DNA of 64,000 bases, from assembly GCA_035695445.1 (NCBI GenBank), contig DASRSI010000009.1, forward strand, positions 9,974-73,973, in the 5' to 3' direction. The notes beneath the pieces are model-generated. The model had not been told where the DNA came from. It made no database searches and saw only the letters and a list, made by a program, of their open reading frames with translations. Shown here in pieces: positions 1,147 to 15,530 of this stretch (the first letter of the stretch is position 1; each line of letters starts with the position of its first letter). The DNA comes from Candidatus Cybelea sp. (GTDB taxonomy: Bacteria > Vulcanimicrobiota > Vulcanimicrobiia > Vulcanimicrobiales > Vulcanimicrobiaceae). The position numbers and the translations under genes were made by a program.

Positions 1147-2106
1147 TCAAGCGTTTCGGCTCGCCGCCGCTCGTGCGAGGCGGTCCATCATCGCGAGGCC
1201 CAGACCTAGAAGGGGGAAAGGCTGTGCGTCGATCCGCTCGATTCCAAGGGAATCGAGCTCGTGGAGCGCTTCGAAGAAGAATGCTGCTGCCTCGCGCAAG
1301 TCCCCTGCTCGAGAGAGCGTTCGCCCTGCCGCATAACCCTCGAACTCATCGCGCAGCGCGAGCCATCCGGCCCCACGGCGTTCTGCAGGCGGCACGCTCG
1401 CCGGGTCGATGAGTCGCAGGGGCGTTCGCGGGGCGTAATGGTGCGCGAGTCGCCCCGGAGCAGCCGCGGCAGCCGGTCCGCCCTCCCGATCGAGCGGGCC
1501 GGCGATGGCCTCGATCGCCTCGACGGGAATCGCTCCCGGCCGGAGCAGTACCGGGCGCGGCTCGAGAGCGACGATCGTCGACTCGAGACCGTGCTCGGTC
1601 GCGCCGGCGTCGAGAATCATATCGACCCGATCGCCGAGACCGCCGGCAACGTGCTGCGCCCGCGTGGGACTCAAGCCCCCGAACGGGTTCGCGCTTGGTG
1701 CAGCGAGCGGCGCCTCGGCCGCCGCGAGCAGCGCGCGGGCGATCGGATGCGAAGGCATACGCACGGCGACGTGCGAGAGGCCCGCCGTGACCAGATCCGG
1801 GAGCGCCGTTCTCTTCTCGAGCACCAGCGTCAGCGGGCCAGGCCAAAAATGTGCGGCGAGCCTTTGCGCCGCTTCCGGCATATCTGCGATCACTGCCGCG
1901 AGCATTTCGCGATCGAGCACGTGCACGATCAGCGGATCGAAGTTCGGCCGCGCTTTGATCTCGAAAATTCGTGCGACCGCGGCACGGTCGAAAGCGAGCG
2001 CTCCCAAGCCGTAGACGGTCTCGGTGGGGAACGCGACGACTCCGCCGCGACGCAACGTTTCGCCCGCTCGCGTAACGTTCTGCGAATCGGCCGGGAGGAT
2101 GGTCAC
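1147..2106 (-). CDS. tsaC: L-threonylcarbamoyladenylate synthase (Sua5/YwlC/TsaC family, long form)
   Basis: 319 aa. YrdC-fold motif GGVVAFPTETVYGLGA near the N-terminus, plus a Sua5-type C-terminal extension. Confidence 0.88.
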   Translation of the reverse strand: MTILPADSQNVTRAGETLRRGGVVAFPTETVYGLGALAFDRAAVARIFEIKARPNFDPLIVHVLDREMLAAVIADMPEAAQRLAAHFWPGPLTLVLEKRTALPDLVTAGLSHVAVRMPSHPIARALLAAAEAPLAAPSANPFGGLSPTRAQHVAGGLGDRVDMILDAGATEHGLESTIVALEPRPVLLRPGAIPVEAIEAIAGPLDREGGPAAAAAPGRLAHHYAPRTPLRLIDPASVPPAERRGAGWLALRDEFEGYAAGRTLSRAGDLREAAAFFFEALHELDSLGIERIDAQPFPLLGLGLAMMDRLARAAASRNA

Positions 2107-2146
2107 GAGGAAGGGATGGAGCCCGACCCCGGACGATACCTTTTAA

Positions 2147-3487
2147 ATGCGGCTTTTAGCGCGCGCCGTGCTCGTCGTCGCGGTGATGCTCCCCATCTTG
2201 CTCGACGGCTGCAGCAGCGGGGGCGGCGGCTCGTCCCCGTCGGGGCCGCTGCCCCCGCCGCCTCCGGCGAAAGCGGGTAAATACTTCACCCACATCGTGA
2301 TCATCATTCAAGAGAACCGTACGTTCGATAACCTCTTCGCAACGTTTCCCGGCGCCGACGGAGCGACGCGCGGCAAGACGAGTAAAGGCGGAACGATCCC
2401 CCTGCGTAAGGCCAATCTCGATAGCACGATCTCGCCGAACAACGGCTATCTCTTCTGGAAGCGAGACTGGAATAACGGGAAGATGAACGGCTTCGACACC
2501 GTTCCGGTCGGAAAATCTCCCGGGACGTACGTCTACCAGTACGTCGATCCCAATCAGATTCGCCCGTATTGGGATCTCGCGGAGCGGTACGTACTCGCCG
2601 ATCACACCTTTCAAACGCAAGGCAGCGGAAGCTTTACCGCGCATCAAGATCTCATTCGCGGCGGTACTGAGGTCAACACCGACAAGAGCCTGATCGATTT
2701 TCCCAGCTCCGCGCCGTGGGGATGCGATTCGCCGGCGGGAACGCGAACCTCGCTGATTACCGAAAGCAATCAATACGAGCATCTTCAGGGACCGTTTCCG
2801 TGCCTCACCTATCGTACGCTGCGCGATTTGCTCGATGCCAATGGCGTTTCGTGGCGATACTATACGCCGTCGATCGGCGGCTTTGCCGGAAACCTTTGGA
2901 ACGCTTTCGACTCAATCGCGGCGGTGCGTCAAGGACCGGAGTGGACGACGAACGTCATCTCGCCGGAGACCGACGTTTTTACCGATATCAGCCGCAATAC
3001 GTTGCCCGCCATCTCGTGGGTGATTCCGGACCTTCGCAACTCCGATCACCCCGGCACGAACTTCGATAGCGGCCCCTCATGGGTCGCCGGCGTCGTCAAT
3101 GCGATCGGAGAGAGTCCCGCGTGGAAGACGACCGCAATCCTCATCGTGTGGGACGATTGGGGCGGATGGTACGATCACGTTCCGCCGCCGGGCAAGCGCC
3201 AGTACGGCGGCTTGGGCTTTCGATTTCCGTTCATCACCGTCGCTCCGTATGCCAAGGCCGGCTACATCGCACATGCCGAGTACCAAACGGGTAGCATCGT
3301 GCGTTTCGTCGAGGACAATTGGGATCTCGGGCGCCTCGGTACGACCGACGAAGAATCCGCCAGCTTTGTCAACGACTTTTTCGATTTCACTCAGAACCCG
3401 CGCAAGTACGTGCCGATTCAAGCACCGTACTCCAAAACGTATTTGCTGAAGCAGCCTCCGTCGAACGAGCCGGTCGACACGGAATAA
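2147..3487 (+). CDS. Phosphoesterase-family (AcpA acid phosphatase / phospholipase C-like) lipoprotein, clade A copy A1
   Basis: ATG at 2147; lipobox LLDGC. Motifs [52 protein letters not shown] and GLGFRFP. C-terminal tail PVDTE. Confidence 0.9.
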   Translation: MRLLARAVLVVAVMLPILLDGCSSGGGGSSPSGPLPPPPPAKAGKYFTHIVIIIQENRTFDNLFATFPGADGATRGKTSKGGTIPLRKANLDSTISPNNGYLFWKRDWNNGKMNGFDTVPVGKSPGTYVYQYVDPNQIRPYWDLAERYVLADHTFQTQGSGSFTAHQDLIRGGTEVNTDKSLIDFPSSAPWGCDSPAGTRTSLITESNQYEHLQGPFPCLTYRTLRDLLDANGVSWRYYTPSIGGFAGNLWNAFDSIAAVRQGPEWTTNVISPETDVFTDISRNTLPAISWVIPDLRNSDHPGTNFDSGPSWVAGVVNAIGESPAWKTTAILIVWDDWGGWYDHVPPPGKRQYGGLGFRFPFITVAPYAKAGYIAHAEYQTGSIVRFVEDNWDLGRLGTTDEESASFVNDFFDFTQNPRKYVPIQAPYSKTYLLKQPPSNEPVDTE

Positions 3488-3489
3488 AA

Positions 3490-4833
3490 GTGACCAAGAT
3501 TAGTGACGCATATCAACCATTGGCCCGCACGCGATCCGTCAAATGGAAGGCCGTAGCAGATGGCGAACCCTCGCCAGACTTCGGTATGCATATTTTAGAA
3601 AGATCCTGGGGGGCAATTGCCCCGAAAACGCGAGTACAGAGCGTGCCCGTCGTCCTCTCCGACTTCGAGCGCGTCGACGTCACTGCGCCCGTCGCGCAAG
3701 ACGAGCTCAAAGAGATTCAAGCGCACTTTATGACGATCGCGCAGGGCGCTGCGCGCGGACTCACCGACCCGAGCGAGCGCGAACAGCTCGCGACCAATCT
3801 GCGAGAACGCATGGCGCGCTACGGAACTTCATCGGAATATATTGCGCAACGCCAGGTCAGCGTGCTCACCTCGTGTTTCGTCAAAGCCGATGCCGATAAT
3901 TCCTCGGAGCTGGTGCAGCGTTACGGCAACCTTCGCGCGCCGACCGGCGAAGCGCTCGACGAACGGATGACGCTCTTCGAAGAAGTTGCCTGCGACGTCT
4001 TCGAGCGCGTCTATCGCGATACCGAAGCACCGGCACCCGACGACATCGTGCACGTCAGCTGCTCGGGCTACGTGTCGCCGAGCCCCGTCCAAACGTTTCT
4101 CTCGCGGCGCGGATGGCTCAACGTGGGCGTCACGCACTCGTATCACATGGGATGCTACGGTGCGTTTCCCGCGATCCGTACGGCCGTCGGTCTGGTCGGA
4201 TCGTCCTACGTCTCGCTCACAAAGCAGAAGCGCCGCGTCGATCTGGTTCACACCGAGTTTCTCTCGCTCCACTTCGACCTGCTCGGCGACGAGCCCGATA
4301 ACTTCGTTACCTCGACGCTCTTTGCCGACGGTTTCATCAAGTATTCGGCCTATCCCGAAGCATCGTTTCCGAAGCAGGGCCGCAGCGGGCTCAAGGTACT
4401 CGCGATTGACGAACATATTCTTCCCGACTCGCTGCCCGAGATGACGCTGCGGCCCGGTCCGCTGCAGTTCGACATGTCGCTCTCTAAGCGCGTGCCGTTC
4501 ATGATCCGCGACTCGGTCGCCGATTTCGTCCACGCGCTCTGCGCGCAGACCGGTCTCGATTTCGAGCGCGAGAAGGAGTCGATGATCTTTGCAATCCACC
4601 CCGGCGGTCCGGCGATCCTCAACCAGATCCGCAACCGCCTCGGCATCGAGGAGTCGCAGGTCGCGCTGAGCCGCCGCGTGCTCCACGAGCATGGCAACAT
4701 GGCCTCGGCCACCGCGCCCCACATCTGGCAGCACATCGTGGAATCGCCCTCGATTCCCACCGGGTCGAAGGTGCTGAGCATGGCATTCGGACCCGGCTTA
4801 ACGGTTATAGGCGCACTCTTCGAGAAAGTGTAG
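3490..4833 (+). CDS. Type III polyketide synthase (chalcone/stilbene synthase superfamily)
   Basis: C-terminal signatures AIHPGGPAILNQI, HEHGNMASATAPHI and FGPGLTVIGALFEKV; candidate active-site Cys in VSCSGYVSPSP. The track ORF start (3319) lies inside the upstream gene. The in-frame GTG at 3490 sits 3 nt after the upstream stop. ATG 3586 is an alternative start. Confidence 0.82.
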   Translation: MTKISDAYQPLARTRSVKWKAVADGEPSPDFGMHILERSWGAIAPKTRVQSVPVVLSDFERVDVTAPVAQDELKEIQAHFMTIAQGAARGLTDPSEREQLATNLRERMARYGTSSEYIAQRQVSVLTSCFVKADADNSSELVQRYGNLRAPTGEALDERMTLFEEVACDVFERVYRDTEAPAPDDIVHVSCSGYVSPSPVQTFLSRRGWLNVGVTHSYHMGCYGAFPAIRTAVGLVGSSYVSLTKQKRRVDLVHTEFLSLHFDLLGDEPDNFVTSTLFADGFIKYSAYPEASFPKQGRSGLKVLAIDEHILPDSLPEMTLRPGPLQFDMSLSKRVPFMIRDSVADFVHALCAQTGLDFEREKESMIFAIHPGGPAILNQIRNRLGIEESQVALSRRVLHEHGNMASATAPHIWQHIVESPSIPTGSKVLSMAFGPGLTVIGALFEKV

Positions 4834-4839
4834 GCCCCG

Positions 4840-6006
4840 ATGGCTACCACCGAGACCAAGACACCGCAGAAATTCTCCGTGCCGAGCCCTTTCTATTGGA
4901 GCGTGCGGACCGTCCATGCGGCCGCTCCGCTCTTCGTTGGGCTTGGAAATCTCGAATCGCTGATGCTCTCGCGCAGCATAGCAGCGCAACAAGTCGATCG
5001 CCCGGTCTATATCTGCGGACTTCCGCGGGCCGGCACCACGATCACGCTGCAGATGCTCAGCGAGCATCCCGACGTCGCGACCCACAAGTACGCCGATTTT
5101 CTCATGCCCTACATGCCGTGGGTCTGGAACAACGTCTTCCCGCGCATTCCGGTCGACGCGATGCGCAAGCCGGTTCCGCGCATTCACCGCGATCGCATCG
5201 AGGTGACGCGCGACAGCGCCGAGATGGGCGAGGAGATCTTATGGGAACACTTCTTCCCCTTCGTCCACGACGAATCGAAGTATAGCGTCCTCGACGGTTC
5301 GGTCTCCAATCCGAGCTTCGAACGTTTTTACAGCGAGCATTTGCGCAAGCTCGCGCTGGTGCGCGGGCGCGACCGCTACGTCAGCAAAGCGATTCTCTGC
5401 GTTTTGCGCATGCAGTACCTGCGCAAGATTTTTCCCGACGCGCGGTTCCTGCTCTACGTCCGCAACCCCATCGATCACGTCGCGTCGCTGATCAAACAGG
5501 ACCGCATTTGGGCCGAGCTCGAGCGCAGCGATCCGCGCCAGATCGAGATCATCGAGCTTACCGGACACCACGAGTTCGGCACGCGTCAGGTGATGGCGAA
5601 CGTGGGCGACCCGCAGCGGCTCGCCGAAATTCGCCGGCTCTTCGACGACGGCAAGTGGGCGCAGTCACGTGCGCGTTATTGGGCCTACGTCTACGGCTTT
5701 GTTGCCAAACAACTCGATTCGGATCCCGAGCTCGCGCGCAGCGTCTGCGTCGTGCGCTACGAGGATCTCTGTAACGACTCCCCGGGGACGATCGATCGCA
5801 TTCTCGCGCATACCGGCCTCGATGCGCCGAGCTTCGCCGCGGCGAAGGCAAAATACAGCGAGAAGCTTTCGTTCCCGGACTACTACAAACCGACGTTCAC
5901 CGCCGACGTCATGGATGAGATCGTCGCATGCACCTCCGAAACGGCCAAACGATTCGATTACGATGTTCCCGCCATCGCCCAGAGAGTCGGCGTTGTTCCG
6001 ACGTGA
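4840..6006 (+). CDS. PAPS-dependent sulfotransferase family protein
   Basis: 5'-PSB loop-like motif GLPRAGTTITLQML near the N-terminus. 388 aa. Starts 6 nt after the PKS stop. Confidence 0.75.
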   Translation: MATTETKTPQKFSVPSPFYWSVRTVHAAAPLFVGLGNLESLMLSRSIAAQQVDRPVYICGLPRAGTTITLQMLSEHPDVATHKYADFLMPYMPWVWNNVFPRIPVDAMRKPVPRIHRDRIEVTRDSAEMGEEILWEHFFPFVHDESKYSVLDGSVSNPSFERFYSEHLRKLALVRGRDRYVSKAILCVLRMQYLRKIFPDARFLLYVRNPIDHVASLIKQDRIWAELERSDPRQIEIIELTGHHEFGTRQVMANVGDPQRLAEIRRLFDDGKWAQSRARYWAYVYGFVAKQLDSDPELARSVCVVRYEDLCNDSPGTIDRILAHTGLDAPSFAAAKAKYSEKLSFPDYYKPTFTADVMDEIVACTSETAKRFDYDVPAIAQRVGVVPT

Positions 6007-7424
6007 CGCTTCGCGCCCGCGCTCTCTGCTCTTGGGCGATTGCCGCTAGCTTCGCGCTGACCGCCTGCGGCGGCGGATCGAACGGCCTCGCGCCCGTCTC
6101 GAGTCCCGGCAGCCGCCAACAGGGCTCCGGAAGCTCGCCGATCCAGCACGTCATCCTGATCGTTCAGGAGAATCGCACCTTCAACAATCTCTTTGCCGGC
6201 TTTCCGGGTGCGACCAGCACGATGACCGGCGCAGAACTGGTCAAACAAGGCAGCAAATACGTCGAGCAGCCGCTCGCGCTGAGCGAAGCCAAGCTCTACG
6301 ACAAGACGAACATCGCGCATCTCTACAAAGCATTTTTGACCGGCTGGCAGAAGGGCGCGATGGACGGTTTCAGTCTCATCAAATTCACGCGCAGCGGCCA
6401 GCCCGAAGGCAAGACGCCGTATCAATACGTCAATCCCGCGCAGATCGTACCCTACCGCACGATGGCGGCGCAGTGGGGTCTTGCAGACGAAATGTTCCAG
6501 ACTCAGGGCAGCGACAGTTTCACCGCCCACCAGGATTTGATTCGCGGAGGCACCTTCGTCAGTCCGGACTCGAGCATGATCGATCCGCCAACGGCGCCTT
6601 ACACGTGGGGTTGCGATTCGAACCCCGGCACGAAGACGACCATCATCACGAAGAAGTTGCAGCTCAAGGTCGACAAAGGTCCCTTCCCCTGCTCGAACGC
6701 GTTTCCGAATTACGGCGGCAAAGGTTACGACACGCTGCGCGACTTGCTCGACGCGAAGTCGCTCTCGTGGAAATACTATACGCCGACCTTCGAACGGAAG
6801 GCCCCCAACGGCATGTGGAATGCCTTCGACGTGATCGCGCCGGTGCGGTACGGCCCGGAGTGGACCGATAATATCTCCTCGCCCGAAACGACGATCCTCA
6901 GTGACATCAGTAACAACAAGCTGCCGGCAATGTCGTGGGTGATTCCCGACGCCGCGAACTCCGATCACCCCGGCTACGGCGGCAAGGATACCGGACCGTC
7001 GTGGGTCGCGGATATCGTCAATGCGATCGGTGGAAGTTCGTATTGGAATACGACCGCGGTCATCGTCGTCTGGGATGATTGGGGCGGTTTTTACGATCCG
7101 GTTCCTCCGCCGCCGAGGGATCATCAAGGTGGTCCCGGTTTCCGCGTTCCGATGATCGTCGTCTCGCCCTACGTCATTGCGGGAAGCGGCAGCCAAAACG
7201 GGTATGTCTCCCATACGGTCTATGGGTTCGGCAGCATCTTACGATTCATCGAAGACAACTTTGGGCTCGGCCGGCTCGGAACGACCGATTCCACCTGTAC
7301 CAGCATCGGCGACATGTTCGACCTCAGCCAATCGCCGCGCAGCTTCCAAACGATTCCAACGAAGTACTCGAAGCAGTACTTCTTACGCGAGAGGCCGTCG
7401 AACTTGCCGGTCGATACGGAGTAG
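6003..7424 (+). CDS. Phosphoesterase-family lipoprotein, clade A copy A2
   Basis: In-frame GTG at 6003 overlaps the sulfotransferase stop (GTGA) and gives the signal VTLRARALCSWAIAASFALTAC. Motifs [52 protein letters not shown] and GPGFRVP. Tail PVDTE. Confidence 0.9.
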   Translation: MTLRARALCSWAIAASFALTACGGGSNGLAPVSSPGSRQQGSGSSPIQHVILIVQENRTFNNLFAGFPGATSTMTGAELVKQGSKYVEQPLALSEAKLYDKTNIAHLYKAFLTGWQKGAMDGFSLIKFTRSGQPEGKTPYQYVNPAQIVPYRTMAAQWGLADEMFQTQGSDSFTAHQDLIRGGTFVSPDSSMIDPPTAPYTWGCDSNPGTKTTIITKKLQLKVDKGPFPCSNAFPNYGGKGYDTLRDLLDAKSLSWKYYTPTFERKAPNGMWNAFDVIAPVRYGPEWTDNISSPETTILSDISNNKLPAMSWVIPDAANSDHPGYGGKDTGPSWVADIVNAIGGSSYWNTTAVIVVWDDWGGFYDPVPPPPRDHQGGPGFRVPMIVVSPYVIAGSGSQNGYVSHTVYGFGSILRFIEDNFGLGRLGTTDSTCTSIGDMFDLSQSPRSFQTIPTKYSKQYFLRERPSNLPVDTE

Positions 7425-8841
7425 CACCGCGGTCCGTCTAGCGTATCTTCCGACGCTCGCGGCAATTCTTGCCCTCGCCGGCTGCGGTGGCAGAGGATTC
7501 TCAGCGCTCCTTCCGCCGTCGGGAGCGAACGAGCCGCCGGCGAGTTCGGCACCAAAGATCAAGCACATCGTGCTGATGATTCAGGAGAATCGCACCTTCA
7601 ACAATCTCTTCGCCGGTTTTCCGAAGGCGAAAAGTTCGTTGACGGGTGTCGAGCTCGTCAAACAAGGCGGCCATCGCGTCAAAAAGACGGTCAATCTCAC
7701 CAAAGCCAATCTCACGTTCAAGGGTAACCTCGTCCATCTCTACGCCGCCTATCAAATCGCGTGGCAGAAGGGCGACATGGACGGCTTCAACCTGAACAAA
7801 TACGTGGTGAACGGCCAGCCGGAAGGATTAGCGCCGTATCAATACGTCGATCCTTCGCAGATTCAGCCCTACCGCACGCTGGCGGCGCAGTGGGGACTCG
7901 CCGATGAGATGTTTCAGACGCAGGGCAGCGACAGTTTCACCGCCCATCAAGACTTGATTCGCGGCGGCACGTTTATCAACCCGACCGAAAGCCTGATCGA
8001 TCCGCCGACCTCACCCGACGCGTGGGGTTGCGATTCGTCACAGGGTTCGAAGACGCAGCTGATTACGACCCAACTCAAATATCTGAAAAACGCCGGGCCA
8101 TTTCCGTGCACGAAAGACTTTCCGGATTACACAACCTACGGCTACAAGACGCTGCGCGACCTGCTCGATGCAAAATCGCTCTCGTGGAAGTACTACGCGC
8201 CGCCGTTCGCCCATTCGCAGCCGAACGGCCTGTGGAATGCCTTCGATCTTGTCGCGGCGGTTCGTTATGGCAGCGAATGGACGACGAATATTTCCTCGCC
8301 CGAGACCAACGTGCTATCAGACGTCCAGCACGGGAAGTTGCCGGCACTGTCGTGGGTGATTCCCGACGCCGCAAACTCCGACCATCCGGGTTACGCGGCG
8401 CACGACACCGGACCGTCGTGGATCGCGAGCGTCGTCAACGCGATCGGCCAGAGCAAATACTGGGACTCGACTGCGGTCATCGTCGTGTGGGACGACTGGG
8501 GCGGCTTCTACGATCCGGTCGCGCCGCCGCCGCAGGACGATCAAGGCGGCCCCGGCTTCCGCGTCGCTATGATCGTCGCGTCGCCCTACGTGCGACTCGG
8601 AAGCAACGGCAAACCGGGCTACGTCTCGCATACCCTCTACTCGTTCGGCAGCATCGTCCGCTTCATCGAAGATACGTTCAACCTGGGAAGGCTGGGAACG
8701 ACCGACTCCACCTGCACGAGTATCGGCAATATGTTCGATTTCACGCAATCTCCGCGCACGTTCACAAAGATTCAAGCGCGCTACACGCGCTCGTTCTTCC
8801 TCCACCAACGCCCCTCGGGCCTACCGGTCGACACCGACTAG
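7414..8841 (+). CDS. Phosphoesterase-family lipoprotein, clade A copy A3 (start uncertain)
   Basis: Motifs [52 protein letters not shown]; tail PVDTD. Lipobox LALAGC at about 7480. No ATG/GTG/TTG lies between the A2 stop (7424) and the lipobox. The nearest plausible initiator is ATA 7414. The track start 7177 and TTG 7261 lie deep inside A2. Confidence 0.85.
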   Translation: MRSSTAVRLAYLPTLAAILALAGCGGRGFSALLPPSGANEPPASSAPKIKHIVLMIQENRTFNNLFAGFPKAKSSLTGVELVKQGGHRVKKTVNLTKANLTFKGNLVHLYAAYQIAWQKGDMDGFNLNKYVVNGQPEGLAPYQYVDPSQIQPYRTLAAQWGLADEMFQTQGSDSFTAHQDLIRGGTFINPTESLIDPPTSPDAWGCDSSQGSKTQLITTQLKYLKNAGPFPCTKDFPDYTTYGYKTLRDLLDAKSLSWKYYAPPFAHSQPNGLWNAFDLVAAVRYGSEWTTNISSPETNVLSDVQHGKLPALSWVIPDAANSDHPGYAAHDTGPSWIASVVNAIGQSKYWDSTAVIVVWDDWGGFYDPVAPPPQDDQGGPGFRVAMIVASPYVRLGSNGKPGYVSHTLYSFGSIVRFIEDTFNLGRLGTTDSTCTSIGNMFDFTQSPRTFTKIQARYTRSFFLHQRPSGLPVDTD

Positions 8842-8846
8842 CGCAT

Positions 8847-8962
8847 CCCTTCGCGGTTCGCCCTTCGTGGTTCGCCCTTCGTGGTTCGCCCTTCGACTAC
8901 GCATCGCTTCGCGATGCTACGCTCAGGATGACACGGGTTGGGTCGCTACGCTCACCATGACA
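8847..8962. repeat. REP/MITE-like element, copy a (intergenic, between convergent A3 and B1)
   Basis: Three tandem GGTTCGCCCTTCG units, then CCCTTCGACTACGC. This is followed by the hairpin GCATCGC-TTC-GCGATGC, then CTACGCTCAGGATGACA and a second degenerate GCTACGCTCACCATGACA. Confidence 0.8.
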
Positions 8963-8972
8963 AGGTGTGAGG

Positions 8973-10295
8973 TTACTGTTCGTCGGGGATTTGGCCGTCG
9001 TTGGGTTGATTGAGGAAGAAACGTGCATCAAGCGGCGCCGCGATCGGCACGAAGCGACGCGGCTTCCGATTGAAGTCGAGGCAATCTTTTGCGGGTGAGG
9101 TGGCGCGCGAATCGGCGGCCGAGAGACGATCGAGCCCGAAGAGATCTTCGGCATAGCGCAGCACGCTCGCCGTCTCGTATTGCACGTGCGAAACGTAATC
9201 GCTCTTCGCATACGGCGAAATGACCATCAACGGCACACGAAAACCTAAACCGTCGTAATCCTTGAAGGGCGGTGGAACCGGATCGTAGAGGCCGCCCCAG
9301 TCGTCCCACTGCACGAAAATGACCGTCGAATCCCAGAACTGGCTCTCGCCGACGGCGTTGACCACGGAGGCGACCCACGAGGGACCATCGCCGCCGCCGC
9401 AATCGGTGTGATCGGAATCGGGACAGAGCGGCGTAACCCAGGTAAAGGCTGCGAGCTTGCCCTTTGCAACGTCGCTGAGAAACCGGCGCTGCGGCGTGAT
9501 GATGTTTCTCTTCCAGTCGGGACCGTAAAAAATATGCTTGACCGCCTGATAGCCCGACCAGAGTCCGCTATACGGGCGATTGTATTTGGCGGTATAGAAG
9601 CGCCACTTTAATCCGGCGTGGTCGAGCTCGTCGCCGAAGGTCGTGTAATTGAAGCACGGGCGCTGCGGCGTTGAATAGGTTCGTTTCAACGTGATGGTCG
9701 CTTCCGGATCGCCCTTTCCGCCCTCGCAACCCCACCAGCCATCCGGCACGTCGACGCTGGAGTGCGCTTGCGCCGCGATGATGTATTGATGCGCCACGAA
9801 ACTCTCGTCGAGCTGCGACTGGAACATGCGATCGGCGAGAACCCACTCGTGCGCCATATCCCAGTACGGCTTCGATTCCGAATGGGGAACGAAGGTGTAC
9901 TCGCGGTTTTCAGGACCGCCGATGCCGCCTTCGCGGTTGAAGCCGTCCATCCGGCACTTCGTCCCCGGCAGCCGCCCGGTTCCGTTGCAGGCCGCGAACA
10001 TGTCTTTCGCCCCGTGGCCGATCTCGAAGATGGTCTTGAGGCTCACTGCTTTGAGCGTAATCGTCTTACCGTAAGAATCCTTGCCTTTTGACACGGTATA
10101 GGCGCCCGGATAACCCTGGAACATGTCGTTAAAGCTGCGGTTCTCTTGCACGACCCAAACGACGTGACGAATCTTTCCGGCACCCATGGCATTGAGCGCC
10201 TGCAACGGCGTTCCGCCGCTCATGTAGGGCACGACGGTGCGTCCGCAAGCCGTCAGCGCGAACGCGGCCGCAAGCGCAAAGATGCGCTTACTCAT
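8973..10295 (-). CDS. Phosphoesterase-family lipoprotein, clade B copy B1
   Basis: Internal ATG at 10295 gives MSKRIFALAAAFALTAC and overlaps the B2 stop by 8 nt (ATGAGTAA). Motifs [59 protein letters not shown] and GLGFRVP. Tail IPDEQ. Confidence 0.9.
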   Translation of the reverse strand: MSKRIFALAAAFALTACGRTVVPYMSGGTPLQALNAMGAGKIRHVVWVVQENRSFNDMFQGYPGAYTVSKGKDSYGKTITLKAVSLKTIFEIGHGAKDMFAACNGTGRLPGTKCRMDGFNREGGIGGPENREYTFVPHSESKPYWDMAHEWVLADRMFQSQLDESFVAHQYIIAAQAHSSVDVPDGWWGCEGGKGDPEATITLKRTYSTPQRPCFNYTTFGDELDHAGLKWRFYTAKYNRPYSGLWSGYQAVKHIFYGPDWKRNIITPQRRFLSDVAKGKLAAFTWVTPLCPDSDHTDCGGGDGPSWVASVVNAVGESQFWDSTVIFVQWDDWGGLYDPVPPPFKDYDGLGFRVPLMVISPYAKSDYVSHVQYETASVLRYAEDLFGLDRLSAADSRATSPAKDCLDFNRKPRRFVPIAAPLDARFFLNQPNDGQIPDEQ

Positions 10296-11616
10296 AATCC
10301 GGCGCGAAATAGTCGTCGGGCAGGGGACGCATGAAGAACTTCGGCGGATAGGGCGCATCGATCTTGACGAATGGACGGGGCTTCTGCGAGAAGTCGAAGG
10401 AATCTTTGCCCGGCGCATTCGCGCGCCGGTCGGCACCGGAGAGCTGACGCAAGCCGAAGAGATTCTCGGCAAACCGCAGCACGCTCGCAGTCTCGTATTG
10501 CACGTGGGTAACGCGCCGGCGAGCGTAGGGCGAGATCATCAACAACGGCACGCGAAAGCCGAGTCCGTCGCGTCCTTCGTACGGCGGCGGAACGTGATCG
10601 TAGAGACCACCCCAATCATCCCATTGCACGAAGATCGCCGTTGAATCCCAGAACTTGCTCTCTCCAACGGTATTGACGAGTGCGGTGACCCACGATGGCC
10701 CGTACGCTCCGGGACAGTTCACGTGGTCGGAATCGTCGCAGACCGGAGTAATCCAGGTGAAGTTCGCGAGTTTACCCTGACGAACGTCGACGATGAACTG
10801 CCAGTTCGGCGAGACGACGTTCTTCCAATCGGGCCCGTAGCGGATATGTTTGACTGCCTGATAACTCGACCACTCGGTGCCGCTGCCGCCCTGCGAGCCG
10901 CTTCCGTATTTGCTCGCGTAGAACCGCCAGCTCAACTTCGCTCGGTCGAGCTCGTCACCGAGCGTCTGGTAATCGAAGCACGGATGCATCGTCGGTTTGG
11001 TTACGATGCGCATTTTCGTGATCGTGGAAACGAGGTCGAATTTTCCGCCGCCGCAACCCCAGCGCCCGCCGGGCAAGTCGACGGCCCAGTCCGCCTGCGC
11101 GGCGATCACGTACTGATGCGCGACGAAACTCTCGTCGAGCTGCGACTGAAACATGCGATCGGCGAGCACCCAGTTGCGCGCCATATCCCAGTATGGTTTT
11201 ACCTCTTTGTGCGACGCGTAGACGTACTCGCGGTGCGCCGGGCCGCCGAATCCGGACTCCTGATCGAATCCGTCCATCCTACAATCGGTGCCCGGAAGGG
11301 CGCCGGTTCCGCGGCACGCACTGAACATTGCTTCGGCCGAGTGATCGATGTCGTAGGGATGTCCGAGTGGATAGGGGCGCAGCTTGATGGTCTTTCCTTG
11401 CGAATCCTTACCGCTCGAAACGGTGTCGGCGCCCGGATACGCTTGGAAGAGGTTATCGAAGCTGCGATTCTCCTGCACGATGTAGACGATGTGTTGGATC
11501 TTTCCGGCACCGGTCGCATCGAGTGCCGGCAACGCCACGCTCTCGCGCATATACGGCAGCGAGTGCGACGAGCAGCCGGCGAAGGCGACGGCCATGATAA
11601 CCGGCGCCGCGCGCAT
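10288..11616 (-). CDS. Phosphoesterase-family lipoprotein, clade B copy B2
   Basis: ATG at 11616 gives MRAAPVIMAVAFAGC and overlaps the B3 stop (TAATG). Motifs [55 protein letters not shown]. Tail APDYE. Confidence 0.9.
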   Translation of the reverse strand: MRAAPVIMAVAFAGCSSHSLPYMRESVALPALDATGAGKIQHIVYIVQENRSFDNLFQAYPGADTVSSGKDSQGKTIKLRPYPLGHPYDIDHSAEAMFSACRGTGALPGTDCRMDGFDQESGFGGPAHREYVYASHKEVKPYWDMARNWVLADRMFQSQLDESFVAHQYVIAAQADWAVDLPGGRWGCGGGKFDLVSTITKMRIVTKPTMHPCFDYQTLGDELDRAKLSWRFYASKYGSGSQGGSGTEWSSYQAVKHIRYGPDWKNVVSPNWQFIVDVRQGKLANFTWITPVCDDSDHVNCPGAYGPSWVTALVNTVGESKFWDSTAIFVQWDDWGGLYDHVPPPYEGRDGLGFRVPLLMISPYARRRVTHVQYETASVLRFAENLFGLRQLSGADRRANAPGKDSFDFSQKPRPFVKIDAPYPPKFFMRPLPDDYFAPDYE

Positions 11617-12962
11617 TACTGTTCGTCGGGGATGCGTGGGTCGACCGGCTGCGTTAGGAAGAACGCCGCGCCTTTCGGCGCCTTGATCGGAATGAATTTG
11701 CGCGGCGGCTGATTGAAATCGAGACAATCCTTTGCCGGCGAGGCCGCACGCCTGTCGGCAGCCGAAAGCTGCGAGAGGCCGTAGAGATCTTCAGCGTAGC
11801 GCAGCACACTCGCCGTTTCGTATTGCACGTGCGAGACGAAGTCTTTCTTCGCGTACGGAGAGATGATCATGAGCCCAACACGGAAGCCGAGGCCGTCGTA
11901 ATCTTTGAACGGCGGCGCAACGTGATCGTACATGCCGCCCCAGTCGTCCCATTGCACGAAGACGACGGTCGAGTTCCAGAACTTGCTCTTACCGATGGCA
12001 TCGACGAGCGACGTTACCCACGACGGCCCGAGCCCGCCGCCGCAATCGGAGTGATCGGAGTCGGGACAGGTCGGCGTGATCCAGGTGAAGCTGGCGAGAT
12101 GTCCCTTCGGACCGGCGACGTCCTTGAGGAAGCGGCGCTGCGGCGTGATGATGTCTTTCTTCCAATCGGGTCCGTGAAAGATATGCCTCACCGCCTGATA
12201 ACTCGACCAGAAGCCGCCATACGGTATCGTGTACTTGCTCGTGTAGAAGCGCCACTCCAGGCCGGCCTTATCGAACTCGTCGCCAAGAGTTTGGTAGTCG
12301 AAACACGGCACGATGGACTTCCCGTACTGGCGGGTCTTGGTAATCGTCGAAACCTCGTCGGCCGGGCCTCCGCCGCAGCCCCAATAGTAATCGGGGACGT
12401 CCACCGCCGAGTGGGCCTGTGCCGCAATGATGTATTGGTGCGCCACGAAACTCTCGTCGAGCTGCGACGCAAACGTCCGGTCACTCAAAACGAACTCGTG
12501 TGCCATGTCGAAATAGGGCTTCGATTCTTCGTGCGGTACGTATCCGTACTGGCCGTAATAGGGACCACCGTAAATGTGTTCGTTATTGAAGCCGTTCATG
12601 AGGCACTTCGTTCCCGGCAGTTTGCCGGTGCCGTTGCACGCATAGAACATGCCTTGCGCGGAGTGATCGATCTCGTAGGACGTCTTGAGCGAGATCGCCT
12701 GAAGCGGAATCGTGTCGCCGTGGGAATCCTTGCCTTTCGAAACCGTGTCCGCTCCCGGGTATCCTTGGAACATGTCGTCGAAGCTGCGATTCTCTTGAAC
12801 GATCCAGACGATATGTTTGATCTTTCCCGCGCCGCTGTCGAGCATCGTCTGAACGTTTGCGGGGCCTCCTGCCGGCGGGAGTCCCGGGGCGTTCGAGGCG
12901 CTGCATGCGGAAAAAATGAAGAGTGCGGCTGATAGTGCCGCAGCGGAAAAAGGCCGGATCAT
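11616..12962 (-). CDS. Phosphoesterase-family lipoprotein, clade B copy B3
   Basis: ATG at 12962 gives MIRPFSAAALSAALFIFSAC. Motifs [59 protein letters not shown]. Tail IPDEQ. First gene of a three-gene overlapping string, B3-B2-B1. Confidence 0.9.
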   Translation of the reverse strand: MIRPFSAAALSAALFIFSACSASNAPGLPPAGGPANVQTMLDSGAGKIKHIVWIVQENRSFDDMFQGYPGADTVSKGKDSHGDTIPLQAISLKTSYEIDHSAQGMFYACNGTGKLPGTKCLMNGFNNEHIYGGPYYGQYGYVPHEESKPYFDMAHEFVLSDRTFASQLDESFVAHQYIIAAQAHSAVDVPDYYWGCGGGPADEVSTITKTRQYGKSIVPCFDYQTLGDEFDKAGLEWRFYTSKYTIPYGGFWSSYQAVRHIFHGPDWKKDIITPQRRFLKDVAGPKGHLASFTWITPTCPDSDHSDCGGGLGPSWVTSLVDAIGKSKFWNSTVVFVQWDDWGGMYDHVAPPFKDYDGLGFRVGLMIISPYAKKDFVSHVQYETASVLRYAEDLYGLSQLSAADRRAASPAKDCLDFNQPPRKFIPIKAPKGAAFFLTQPVDPRIPDEQ

Positions 12963-13159
12963 GCGGGAAACTGCCCCAAGCACCCCCGGCATCCCTCCGT
13001 TCGATTCGGCCAAGCCGAGCAGGCATCCGCCTAGACGCCTTGCGACCTTTTGACCCGCGCGCGCGTTCCTTAAATGCCGCTTCCAGGGGAGGGAGGCGGC
13101 CCGACCAGACATAAGTCAGGCTCTCCCCCGATAGGCCTATCTAAACTTAAGGAGCATCT

Positions 13160-14323
13160 GTGAACGCACCCAAGCTAGTGGTGCCGCTTCTTGCGACACT
13201 CGCATTTGCCGCATGTAATGCTGGCGGCACTTCGAACTTGCCGGGCACGCCCGAACAAGTGACATCCCAGAGCCATACCGTTCCGCAAGCACAAACACTC
13301 TTAACCCGCGTGTGCCCCGACATGGGACCGGGCTTTGCGCGCTGCGATGCGTTGCTGATCAACAACGGTAAGGTTCAACCCGACGAACCGGGTTGGCAGC
13401 CCCTCGATTTCCAGACGCGCTACAAGCTGCCCATTACCAAGGGATCGGGCCAGATCGTTGCGATCGTCGACGCCTACGATAACCCGAATGCGGCGACGGA
13501 CCTTGCGACCTACCGTACCGAGTACGGGCTCGGAACCGCGAACTTCGCCAAGTACAATCAGACCGGCCAGCAGAGCAACTATCCGGCCGGCAATAAGGGC
13601 TGGGGACTCGAGGAAGACCTCGATATCGAGATGGTCTCGGCTTCCTGTCCTAAGTGCACCATCTACTTGGTCGAAGCGAACGGCGCCGACACGAACGATC
13701 TCGACACCGCCGAAGCCGAAGCGGTGACGCTCGGCGCGCACGTCGTCAGCAACAGCTGGGGCGGCGGCTCGGTTGTCGGTTCGTACTTCGACACGCCAGG
13801 CGTCGTCTATCTTGCCTCGGCAGGCGACAGTGGATATGGCACGCAGGCCCCGGCCGATCTTGCAAGCGTCGTTGCGGTTGGCGGCACGGTCCTGGCCAAG
13901 AGCGGTTCGGGCGTCTACAGCGAGATGGCCTGGAGAGGAACCGGATCGGGATGCGCGACCGGCGTCGCCAAGCCGGCGTGGCAGCACGATACCGGCTGCA
14001 CTTTCCGCACAATGAATGACGTTTCTGCGGTTGCGATGCAAGTCTCCGAGTACGATTCATACCAGGAAGGAGGCTGGTTCACGGTCGCTGGAACGAGCGT
14101 CTCTTCGCCGCTGGTCAGTGGCGTTTTCGGTCTCGCCGGCAATGCCAAAAAGCTCGATGCCGGTAAGAAATTCTGGAGCCTCAAGAAAAAGGCTCGCAAG
14201 AAAGATCTCAACGATATTACCACCGGGACCAATGGCTCGTGCGGCAATTATCTCTGCACCGCGGGACCCGGATACGATGGACCGACCGGGTGGGGAACGC
14301 CCAAAGGCATCGGCGCATTCTAA
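13160..14323 (+). CDS. S53 (sedolisin/kumamolisin-like) serine-carboxyl peptidase lipoprotein, copy 1
   Basis: AAGGAG lies 6 nt upstream of the GTG at 13160. Lipobox LAFAAC. Motifs FQTRYKLP, GQIVAIVDAYDNP, GWGLEEDLDIEMVSA (Glu/Asp pair), VVSNSWG, ASAGDSGYG and AGTSVSSPLVSG (Ser). Confidence 0.8.
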   Translation: MNAPKLVVPLLATLAFAACNAGGTSNLPGTPEQVTSQSHTVPQAQTLLTRVCPDMGPGFARCDALLINNGKVQPDEPGWQPLDFQTRYKLPITKGSGQIVAIVDAYDNPNAATDLATYRTEYGLGTANFAKYNQTGQQSNYPAGNKGWGLEEDLDIEMVSASCPKCTIYLVEANGADTNDLDTAEAEAVTLGAHVVSNSWGGGSVVGSYFDTPGVVYLASAGDSGYGTQAPADLASVVAVGGTVLAKSGSGVYSEMAWRGTGSGCATGVAKPAWQHDTGCTFRTMNDVSAVAMQVSEYDSYQEGGWFTVAGTSVSSPLVSGVFGLAGNAKKLDAGKKFWSLKKKARKKDLNDITTGTNGSCGNYLCTAGPGYDGPTGWGTPKGIGAF

Positions 14324-14336
14324 AAAGGAGCAGTGA

Positions 14337-15530
14337 ATGAACGCACATATGAAACTCGCCGCGCCGTTCGTGGCAGCGCTCGCGCTGGCCGCGTGTAACG
14401 CAGGCGGCACTTCGAGCTTGCCCGGATCGCCCGGACAAAGCACTTCCATGACCCAAAGCCATCGCGTTCCTGAGTGGCAAGCGAAAGGTCTCGCGCGCCA
14501 CGTATGCGGCGACGTGGGTCCCGGCGAAGCGCGTTGCGACGCGCTCTTGATCAACAACGGAAAGATCCAACCCGACGAACCGGGTTGGCAGCCCCTCGAT
14601 TTCCAGACGCGCTACAAGCTGCCCATTACCAAGGGATCGGGCCAGATCGTTGCAATCGTCGACGGATACGATAACCCGAACGCGGCGACGGACATCGCGA
14701 CCTACCGTACCGAGTACGGGCTCGGAACCGCGAATTTCACCAAGTACAATCAAAAAGGTCAAAAGAGCAACTATCCTACGGGCAACGCAAACTGGGGCCT
14801 CGAAGAAGATCTCGACATCGAGATGGTCTCGGCTTCCTGTCCTAAGTGCACGATCTACCTGGTCGAAGCGAACACGAACAGCACCAAAGATCTCGAAGCC
14901 GCGGAGGCCGAAGCGGTGAAGCTCGGCGCGCATATCATCAGCAACAGCTGGGGATGCCCCGGTAGCAACGCCTGCGTCAACAAGAAGTCCTTCGATCACG
15001 CGGGCGTACTCTATCTCTCGTCGGCCGGTGACGACGGCTACGGAACGCAGGCTCCGGCCGCGCTCGCGAGCGTCGTTTCAGTCGGCGGCACCGTCTTCTC
15101 CAAGAACGGTTCGGGCGTCTACAGCGAGACGGTCTGGGACGGCACCGGATCCGGATGTGCGACCGGCGTCGCGAAGCCGGCGTGGCAGCACGACTCCGGT
15201 TGTAGCTCACGCACCATGAATGACGTTTCCGCAATCGCCTTCCAAGTCAGCGAGTACGATTCATACGGTTACGGCGGCTGGTTTACGGTCGGCGGAACGA
15301 GCGTCGCATCGCCGCTGGTTGGCGGCGTTTTCGGTCTGGCCGCCAATGCCAGCAAGCAAGATGCCGGTAAGAAGTTCTGGAGCCTGAAGAAAAAGGCGCT
15401 CAAGAAAGACCTTAACGACATCACGAGCGGAAGCAATGGCCAGTGCAGCGGAAGTTATCTCTGCACCGGGGGCGTCGGATACGACGGACCGACCGGCTGG
15501 GGAACTCCGAAAGGCATCGGCGCGTTCTAA
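14337..15530 (+). CDS. S53 sedolisin-like peptidase lipoprotein, copy 2
   Basis: AAGGAG before ATG 14337; lipobox LALAAC. Same motif set as copy 1: GQIVAIVDGYDNP, EEDLDIEMVSA, SNSWG, SSAGDDGYG, GGTSVASPLVGG. Contains 86 nt identical to copy 1. Confidence 0.8.
   Translation: MNAHMKLAAPFVAALALAACNAGGTSSLPGSPGQSTSMTQSHRVPEWQAKGLARHVCGDVGPGEARCDALLINNGKIQPDEPGWQPLDFQTRYKLPITKGSGQIVAIVDGYDNPNAATDIATYRTEYGLGTANFTKYNQKGQKSNYPTGNANWGLEEDLDIEMVSASCPKCTIYLVEANTNSTKDLEAAEAEAVKLGAHIISNSWGCPGSNACVNKKSFDHAGVLYLSSAGDDGYGTQAPAALASVVSVGGTVFSKNGSGVYSETVWDGTGSGCATGVAKPAWQHDSGCSSRTMNDVSAIAFQVSEYDSYGYGGWFTVGGTSVASPLVGGVFGLAANASKQDAGKKFWSLKKKALKKDLNDITSGSNGQCSGSYLCTGGVGYDGPTGWGTPKGIGAF

Follow-up and report, generated by a model that had tools for sequence, protein, structure and literature searches.

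The stretch of DNA analysed here (hereafter the window; 64,000 nucleotides (nt) in length) comes from Candidatus Cybelea, an uncultured soil bacterium of the phylum Eremiobacterota whose genome measures 3.03 Mb and is 92% complete. On the plus strand of the window, a gene for a type III polyketide synthase (PKS) of the ArsB/ArsC type is followed by a gene for a sulfotransferase predicted to depend on 3′-phosphoadenosine 5′-phosphosulfate (PAPS), and both are embedded in a run of genes for lipoprotein phosphoesterases of the AcpA/phospholipase C (PLC) family. The PKS gene (3586–4833; 415 amino acids (aa)) starts at ATG 3586, ends with TAG at 4831–4833 and matches Chal_sti_synt_C in Pfam (3.5e-19), and the sulfotransferase gene (4840–6006; 388 aa) starts at ATG 4840, ends with TGA at 6004–6006 and matches Sulfotransfer_3 (PF13469; 2.2e-22). 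Upstream lies phosphoesterase A1 (2147–3487; lipobox LLDGC, stop TAA at 3485–3487; PF04185, 8.8e-57), and downstream lie phosphoesterases A2 (6003–7424; start GTG 6003, stop at 7422–7424, lipobox LTAC; PF04185, 1.4e-47) and A3 (approximately 7450–8841; lipobox LAGC; PF04185, 8.6e-49), the latter being the final gene of the plus-strand run. We consider it probable that these two enzymes act in succession in the cytoplasm to make a sulfated alkylresorcinol or alkylpyrone, predicted from the sequence and its relatives to be a standing lipid of the cell envelope.

The motifs listed in a preliminary description of this locus (AIHPGGPAIL, HGNMASA and FGPGLT for the PKS, LPRAGTT for the sulfotransferase) were all read in the two open reading frames (ORFs), as were the 6-nt gap between the two genes and the overlap of the sulfotransferase stop codon TGA with the GTG of A2 (GTGA). 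Its assignment of signal peptides also held: they are of the lipoprotein type in A1, A2 and A3, and neither the PKS nor the sulfotransferase carries one. The sulfotransferase, A2 and A3 genes are tightly packed behind the PKS gene, with a gap of 6 nt, an overlap of 4 nt and a short gap between the A2 stop and A3, and because of this spacing the four genes are probably read as one transcript. The pair is thus likely to be co-expressed with AcpA-like lipoproteins.

The boundary between A1 and the PKS gene differs from the one first described. The distance of 2 nt first given between the A1 stop and the PKS start applies only to the longer ORF opening at GTG 3490; the true gap is 98 nt. The PKS start is almost certainly ATG 3586, judging from the gene call and from sequence comparison. 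The database gene call begins at this ATG (M33 of the longer ORF) and gives a protein of 415 aa, most of more than 100 homologs are equally long, and the alignment with ArsC begins only at residue 54 of the longer ORF. In many relatives the PKS frame 5′ of the conserved ATG is interrupted by stop codons, and GTG 3490 was ruled out as a start by these upstream in-frame stops together with the 415-aa homologs. With translation starting at ATG 3586, a 98-nt non-coding spacer (3488–3585, plus strand) therefore separates A1 from the PKS gene, and the translational coupling of these two genes that had been proposed is not supported, as this conserved spacer intervenes.

The spacer was compared among related loci, for which intergenic distances were measured in 74 relatives and an alignment of 72 sequences was built. 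Its length is 94–102 nt in most of the relatives, with a mode of 98 nt; a subgroup has 119–123 nt, and the overall range is 60–123 nt. Conserved blocks in the alignment comprise TAACCnnGATTAC right after the A1 stop codon, ATGGAA at 43 nt upstream of the PKS ATG, and GGCGAA. Several explanations of these blocks were examined and set aside. RNAalifold gave no consensus structure on either strand and Rfam gave no match, which speaks against an RNA element. An ORF starting at the conserved ATGGAA would be between 2 and more than 200 codons long, in a frame that varies among relatives, and a leader peptide was rejected accordingly. At TGGAA...GC, inspected by eye, the spacing falls 1 base under the GG-N10-GC rule for sigma-54 promoters, and as a repeated operator the motif fails as well, with TRACYNNGATTAV matching 4 times in the window against 3.5 matches expected. 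Simple scans for sigma-70 promoters and for terminators yielded none above the shuffled background. As a guess, the spacer may serve as an internal promoter or operator for the PKS, sulfotransferase and A2 genes.

The closest solved relatives of the PKS are ArsC of Azotobacter vinelandii (PDB 3VS8) and its G284W mutant (3VS9), both with an E-value of 1e-91. The match with ArsC is full-length, with 41% identity over 391 aligned columns (residues 54–447); no other PDB match comes within 70 orders of magnitude of it, and approximately 100 further type III PKSs are found at E ≤ 0.01. With Chal_sti_synt_C the PKS reaches 69.7 bits, the cut-off being 27. The Cys/His/Asn triad, whose possible absence had been raised in the preliminary description, is present and invariant in 121 homologs: the Cys (HMGCYGAF; codon 4153–4155), the His (AIHPGGP; 4597–4599) and the Asn (HGNMASA; 4696–4698) all align with their ArsC counterparts. 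ArsB and ArsC accept C6–C22 acyl starters and extend them with malonyl-CoA; ArsB, with Trp281, produces alkylresorcinols, whereas ArsC, with Gly284, produces alkylpyrones (PMC6274091). In the Cybelea enzyme, this position is occupied by Leu (codon 4447–4449), likewise invariant in the 121 homologs. The likeness to the ars system, whose long-chain alkylresorcinols and alkylpyrones (the phenolic lipids of cysts) are taken up into membranes in place of phospholipids, lies in ArsC as the nearest characterised relative and in the shared catalytic triad. Compared with the ars operon of Azotobacter vinelandii, the Cybelea PKS has no ArsA/ArsD partners, no second PKS paralog and a Leu for Trp or Gly, and the ars operon in turn has no sulfotransferase.

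The sulfotransferase carries both elements of a PAPS-binding site. The 5′-phosphosulfate-binding (5′-PSB) motif LPRAGTT occupies residues 61–67 (5020–5040), and a 3′-phosphate-binding (3′-PB) motif, the lack of which would have counted against the assignment, was found as RNPIDHVAS (Rx7S; residues 208–216, 5461–5487) and aligns with the equivalent segment of TPST1. Residues G60, R63, G65, T67, R208, P210 and S216 are invariant in 20 to 40 homologs that are 35–45% identical. An AlphaFold model built on 40 sequences reached a predicted local distance difference test score (pLDDT) of 91.7 and a predicted template modelling score (pTM) of 0.91, and a Foldseek search with it returned 27 PDB matches at E ≤ 0.001, all of them PAPS sulfotransferases, led by Stf1 (2ZQ5), TPST2 and Stf9 and including the sulfotransferase domain of CurM. 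The genome encodes an adenosine 5′-phosphosulfate (APS) kinase (PF01583; C13:98271–98723, E 6e-60) on a different contig from the locus, and neither an APS kinase nor a sulfate adenylyltransferase was found in the locus flanks.

The distribution of the two genes was surveyed in an even sample of 151 Eremiobacterota genomes from 71 genera; 26 of the genomes belong to the genus of the window. Orthologs of the PKS occur in 32 of the 151 genomes and orthologs of the sulfotransferase in exactly the same 32, while the other 119 have neither; a 33rd genome encodes an unrelated PKS of 34% identity. The 32 genomes comprise all 26 of the genus and representatives of four sister genera, so that 5 of the 71 sampled genera are covered. 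APS kinase is likewise present in 26/26 sampled genomes of the genus, and it was discarded as a phyletic marker of the pair because its occurrence in 102/151 genomes is non-discriminating.

Gene order was followed in 80 related loci, all of the Cybelea type. Related records bear the names Candidatus Cybelea, Baltobacteraceae, Eremiobacteraeota or Vulcanimicrobiota. The order phosphoesterase–PKS–sulfotransferase is kept beyond chance, in 80/80 loci. A phosphoesterase gene lies directly upstream of the PKS gene in every one of them (on the same strand in 79), and among the 75 loci with downstream sequence, in which the next neighbour could be scored, one follows the sulfotransferase gene in 74 (on the same strand in 72). 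Linkage to phosphoesterases in relatives, on which the preliminary description had made its proposal depend, is therefore found throughout these loci. The gap between the PKS and sulfotransferase genes is mostly 4–8 nt (range 4–40) in the 74 relatives, and the [AG]TGA overlap between the sulfotransferase gene and A2 recurs in about half of them. The block always stands beside divergently transcribed Sua5 and S41 peptidase genes.

To gauge conservation, each protein of the window was compared with its counterparts in the related loci, and the median identity was taken. It is highest for the sulfotransferase (79%) and the PKS (75%), followed by the S41 peptidase (73%), Sua5 and A1 (69% each), the latter a phosphoesterase whose ortholog is kept before the PKS gene, and A2 (53%), a paralog that diverges fast. 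In a gene-by-gene comparison over 62 loci, the PKS and the sulfotransferase both exceeded Sua5 and A1 in identity in 61. Given this genus-wide presence and a conservation above that of the neighbouring housekeeping gene, the sequence comparison points to a core function of the pair and not to an optional metabolite.

In the pathway we favour, the catalytic Cys of the PKS would, by homology, load a long-chain fatty acyl thioester and add malonyl-CoA units, after which the chain would be cyclised to a 5-alkylresorcinol or a 6-alkyl-4-hydroxy-2-pyrone. In a second step, suggested by co-inheritance and by experimental precedent, the sulfotransferase would transfer a sulfo group from PAPS to a ring hydroxyl, with the housekeeping APS kinase as the presumed source of PAPS. 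The product would be an anionic, phosphorus-free amphiphile. As a third step, which we infer only, this product may be a standing cell-envelope lipid and not an optional antibiotic, because both genes are genus-wide and more conserved than the neighbouring housekeeping genes.

The precedent comes from Streptomyces davaonensis, in which adpPKS, adpST and a PAPS cassette yield mono- and di-sulfated alkylresorcinols (sulfated adipostatins, or 'sulfatostatins'), as shown in vivo as well as in vitro (Pulliam et al. 2025, PMC12135136). The Cybelea locus resembles adp in having co-oriented, adjacent genes that encode a type III PKS alongside a PAPS-dependent sulfotransferase with the same two-step logic, the likeness being one of arrangement and published function. 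It differs in that the adp operon has its own three-gene PAPS cassette, whereas Cybelea would rely on its housekeeping APS kinase, and in that adp is an accessory actinomycete cluster, while the Cybelea pair is fixed genus-wide among lipoprotein phosphoesterases. Homology, co-inheritance and this precedent together lend good support to the earlier suggestion of a sulfated phenolic lipid or pyrone as the product.

Several observations weigh against this pathway or narrow it. Pfam recognises only the C-terminal domain of the PKS, the N-terminal model being silent even though the N-terminal half aligns with ArsC. As the Leu at the ArsB Trp281/ArsC Gly284 position is neither Trp nor Gly, the ring type, resorcinol or pyrone, cannot be read from the sequence. 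Fatty acid synthase partners of the ArsA/ArsD type are absent from the flanks, both in the window and in relatives, where the only flanking genes are those for S41 peptidase, Sua5, PF04185 and S53-like proteins; the long acyl chain is suggested solely by the 41% identity to ArsC, and conservation is the one ground for a presumed role in the envelope. A distance of 480 kb separates the two genes in one of the sister genera (L016, L110). Finally, the sulfotransferase family is wide, with 231 representatives at E ≤ 1e-30, and six distant relatives (approximately 39–45% identity) adjoin other genes and no type III PKS gene: two stand by arylsulfate sulfotransferase genes, two behind a thiolase gene and one in an O-antigen-like cluster, and the last has uninformative neighbours. 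Because of these six contexts, the family is not dedicated to polyketides, and the pairing with a type III PKS appears, from the loci compared, to have arisen locally within this clade.

The surroundings of these distant relatives are worth describing in their own right. Arylsulfate sulfotransferase neighbours were seen in a Thorarchaeota metagenome-assembled genome (L107, 7001–10305) and in Alloalcanivorax (L108, 4603–8149), in the latter with two small unassigned genes between; these sulfotransferases are approximately 39–42% identical to that of the window. The closest non-Cybelea relatives on long contigs (44–45%; L118, 902–3636, and L119, 5653–8134) are encoded right downstream of a 417-aa thiolase (PF00108/PF02803), and both thiolase–sulfotransferase pairs adjoin a divergent Mntp gene. 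This may be a second kind of arrangement in which a condensing enzyme is paired with a sulfotransferase. An unassigned N-terminal domain of approximately 240 aa is present in many relatives, and in one a methyltransferase is fused to the sulfotransferase. Fusions of PKS and sulfotransferase were sought among the distant relatives and none was found, the long proteins carrying a methyltransferase or the N-terminal domain instead.

Such varied contexts, including the O-antigen-like cluster, would be expected if the PKS and the sulfotransferase shared no substrate, the latter acting on, for example, a glycolipid, a peptide or a polysaccharide, and the two genes being merely co-regulated neighbours. 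The sister genus in which the genes are unlinked fits this explanation too. However, that same genome still keeps both genes, co-occurrence across the survey is perfect (32/32 and 0/119), and the genes are adjacent in 80/80 loci, mostly 4–8 nt apart. We therefore regard independent substrates as highly improbable.

The sister genera show how far the arrangement extends. One has the PKS–sulfotransferase pair with no adjacent phosphoesterase gene (L017), and two have phosphoesterase genes upstream only. In the genus with separated genes, the sulfotransferase gene (L110, G144:C1:2176000–2194000) ends an operon (8201–14698, minus strand) whose other genes encode two ABC-2 permeases, a double ABC ATPase and a fusion protein of the HlyD type. 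This hints at export of the sulfated product there. A search of the window's own genome for orthologs of this HlyD/ABC-2 exporter returned only generic ABC ATPase matches and one weak HlyD match. At L016 of the same genome (G144:C1:1692000–1711900; 1908–3554), an ABC ATPase gene and the gene for a phosphate transporter of the PHO4/PiT type are found a few kb upstream of the lone PKS gene, and a phosphoglucose isomerase gene converges downstream. Linkage to phosphoesterases is thus fixed within Cybelea and weaker in the sister genera.

Known clusters with both enzymes also bear on the fate of the product. Besides adp, a type III PKS and sulfotransferase occur together in cpz and tot (PMC12135136), and all three of these characterised pairs belong to secondary-metabolite clusters. 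The Cybelea product could accordingly be a sulfated secondary metabolite that diffuses away from the cell and acts, as the sulfated adipostatins do, for instance as an antibiotic or enzyme inhibitor, with the phosphoesterase setting an accident of insertion beside Sua5. The ancestral site does seem to lie next to Sua5–S41, the surrounding phosphoesterases vary in number and identity, and the sulfotransferase gene is linked to an ABC-2 exporter in one sister genus. Against this, the pair is present in 26/26 sampled genomes of the genus and 80/80 loci and is conserved above adjacent housekeeping genes, which is unusual for accessory clusters, and the cluster is without a regulator, a resistance gene or a further tailoring gene. 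A secondary metabolite is, on balance, an unlikely explanation.

In the caprazamycin pathway, the sulfated product has yet another use. The preliminary description stated correctly that a type III PKS product is sulfated there by a PAPS sulfotransferase; the enzymes are Cpz6 and Cpz8, and the sulfated pyrone is merely a carrier for the arylsulfate sulfotransferase Cpz4 (Tang et al. 2013, via PMC11677658). The predicted Cybelea steps resemble Cpz6/Cpz8 in that a type III PKS product would be sulfated by a PAPS-dependent sulfotransferase, and differ in that the genome has neither an arylsulfate sulfotransferase nor a nucleoside-antibiotic cluster. On this precedent, the sulfated polyketide could be a carrier from which an exported enzyme passes sulfate to an acceptor at the surface or outside the cell. 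Export does apply to the flanking phosphoesterases, and the distant sulfotransferase relatives on the Thorarchaeota and Alloalcanivorax contigs stand beside arylsulfate sulfotransferase genes. The PF04185 enzymes belong to the alkaline-phosphatase superfamily, which also includes sulfatases. Nothing points to sulfate transfer by PF04185 enzymes, however, and a long-chain ArsC-like PKS is unlike Cpz6, whose role is that of a short-chain pyrone synthase. Neither PF05935 nor PF14269, the arylsulfate sulfotransferase families searched, has a match at E ≤ 0.01 in the 92% complete genome. Because the genome is without such an enzyme, we give very little credence to a relay of this kind, and the sulfate-carrier variant of the earlier proposal is not upheld.

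A different question is whether the pathway and the phosphoesterases around it serve a common purpose. The best solved relative of A1 is Francisella AcpA (PDB 2D1G, 1.1e-25). As in AcpA, the flanking genes encode PF04185 proteins, their QEN and DDxxGxYDH blocks align with 2D1G, and PF04185 spans positions 1–355 of the 356 in the model in A1, A2 and A3. Unlike AcpA and the PLCs, the proteins are lipid-anchored, they fall below the NCBIfam cut-offs (A1–A3: acid_phos_Burk, 122–141 bits vs 363; PC_PLC, 97–122 bits vs 580), and their family is expanded to approximately 55 paralogs. Of these paralogs, 18 are encoded on the contig of the window and 15 on contig C24, and the phosphoesterases account for approximately 2% of the genome. 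First-look candidates for PF04185 across the survey numbered 31–116 in genomes with the PKS–sulfotransferase pair and 1–19 in the others. This expansion, together with the pair, fits a lineage-specific phosphate economy, as judged from gene content.

The same chemistry could accordingly serve to spare phosphate: under phosphate scarcity, production of the lipid and of the surface phosphoesterases would go hand in hand, the lipid taking the place of anionic phospholipids and the AcpA/PLC-like enzymes recovering phosphate. In a variant, the lipid would shield the cell's own surface from those phosphoesterases. The order phosphoesterase–PKS–sulfotransferase–phosphoesterase in 72/75 loci, with tight spacing or overlap, agrees with such a role, and so do the coincidence of pair-bearing genomes with those showing the PF04185 expansion (approximately 55 paralogs in the window's own genome), the PHO4/PiT transporter gene upstream of the PKS gene in one sister genus, and the replacement of phospholipids by alkylresorcinols in Azotobacter cysts (PMC4824345). 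Nevertheless, all positive genomes form one clade, and the correlation between pair and expansion therefore amounts to a single evolutionary event. With approximately 55 paralogs, a phosphoesterase neighbour is easily gained, so that adjacency is weak evidence of shared function. No shared upstream motif was found, the spacer motif repeats in the window only at chance level, and sister genera have the pair either without adjacent phosphoesterases (L017) or split (L016, L110). A function common to the pair and the phosphoesterases is thus speculative, and we rate the phosphate-sparing role as a tentative possibility that is rather unlikely.

The lipid complement of the genome provides a further strand of this argument. 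While CdsA is present, a CDP-alcohol phosphatidyltransferase (PF01066, of the PgsA or Pss type) was not detected in the genome by Pfam or by phmmer and a motif scan of the six-frame translation, for which four enzymes of the phylum's other classes served as queries. This agrees with the phosphate-sparing role. If the absence is real, the usual route to anionic phosphatidylglycerol (PG) and cardiolipin would be lacking, which suggests an unusual head-group pathway and possibly that neither PG nor cardiolipin is made. Yet PF01066 is missing or barely detectable throughout the class, with 1–7 copies in other classes of the phylum and CdsA in 31/31 relatives, and the absence, being class-wide, therefore does not single out the pair-bearing clade. 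An accessory ORF of 231 aa, in which the CDP-alcohol transferase motif is degenerate (LDGMVAIEGG...GEIFNDMPD), occurs in four genomes of the genus, not including that of the window (L115, G057:C16:20300–21500; L116; G132:C48; G125:C4). In G132 and G125, if not in more of the four, a second cdsA copy is found at a distance of approximately 1 kb from this ORF.

Further features surround the block. Beyond A3, three convergent PF04185 genes occupy 8973–13112 on the minus strand, followed by four genes for S53-like lipoproteins, of which the genome has 11 paralogs. On the other side, the intergenic distance between the divergent Sua5 and A1 genes is only approximately 30–120 nt. Their starts flank a sequence block, GGAAGGGATG(g/a)CgCCCg...GAtACC-TTTAA, that is conserved between the window (2107–2146) and the same place in L026–L105.

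Pairs of PKS and sulfotransferase are already known from Streptomyces; here the pair is found in every sampled genome of a genus, inside a probable operon of phosphoesterase lipoproteins. The same two-step logic is, in this case, a fixed and strongly conserved feature of an uncultured soil and peat genus that is globally common, and as the two genes are small and self-contained, the chemistry is directly testable by heterologous expression. More speculatively, and with considerable doubt on our part, the sulfated alkylresorcinol or alkylpyrone could be a standing phosphorus-free anionic membrane lipid of Candidatus Cybelea and its sister genera, made from one operon with the surface AcpA/PLC-like lipoproteins and providing negative surface charge in a lineage apparently without PF01066 and with approximately 2% of its genome given over to phosphoesterases. 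If this were true, a polyketide sulfolipid would be added to the few lipids of bacterial membranes that contain no phosphorus; as a core membrane component, it would constitute a new phosphate-sparing strategy and would help to explain life in phosphate-poor acidic soils.

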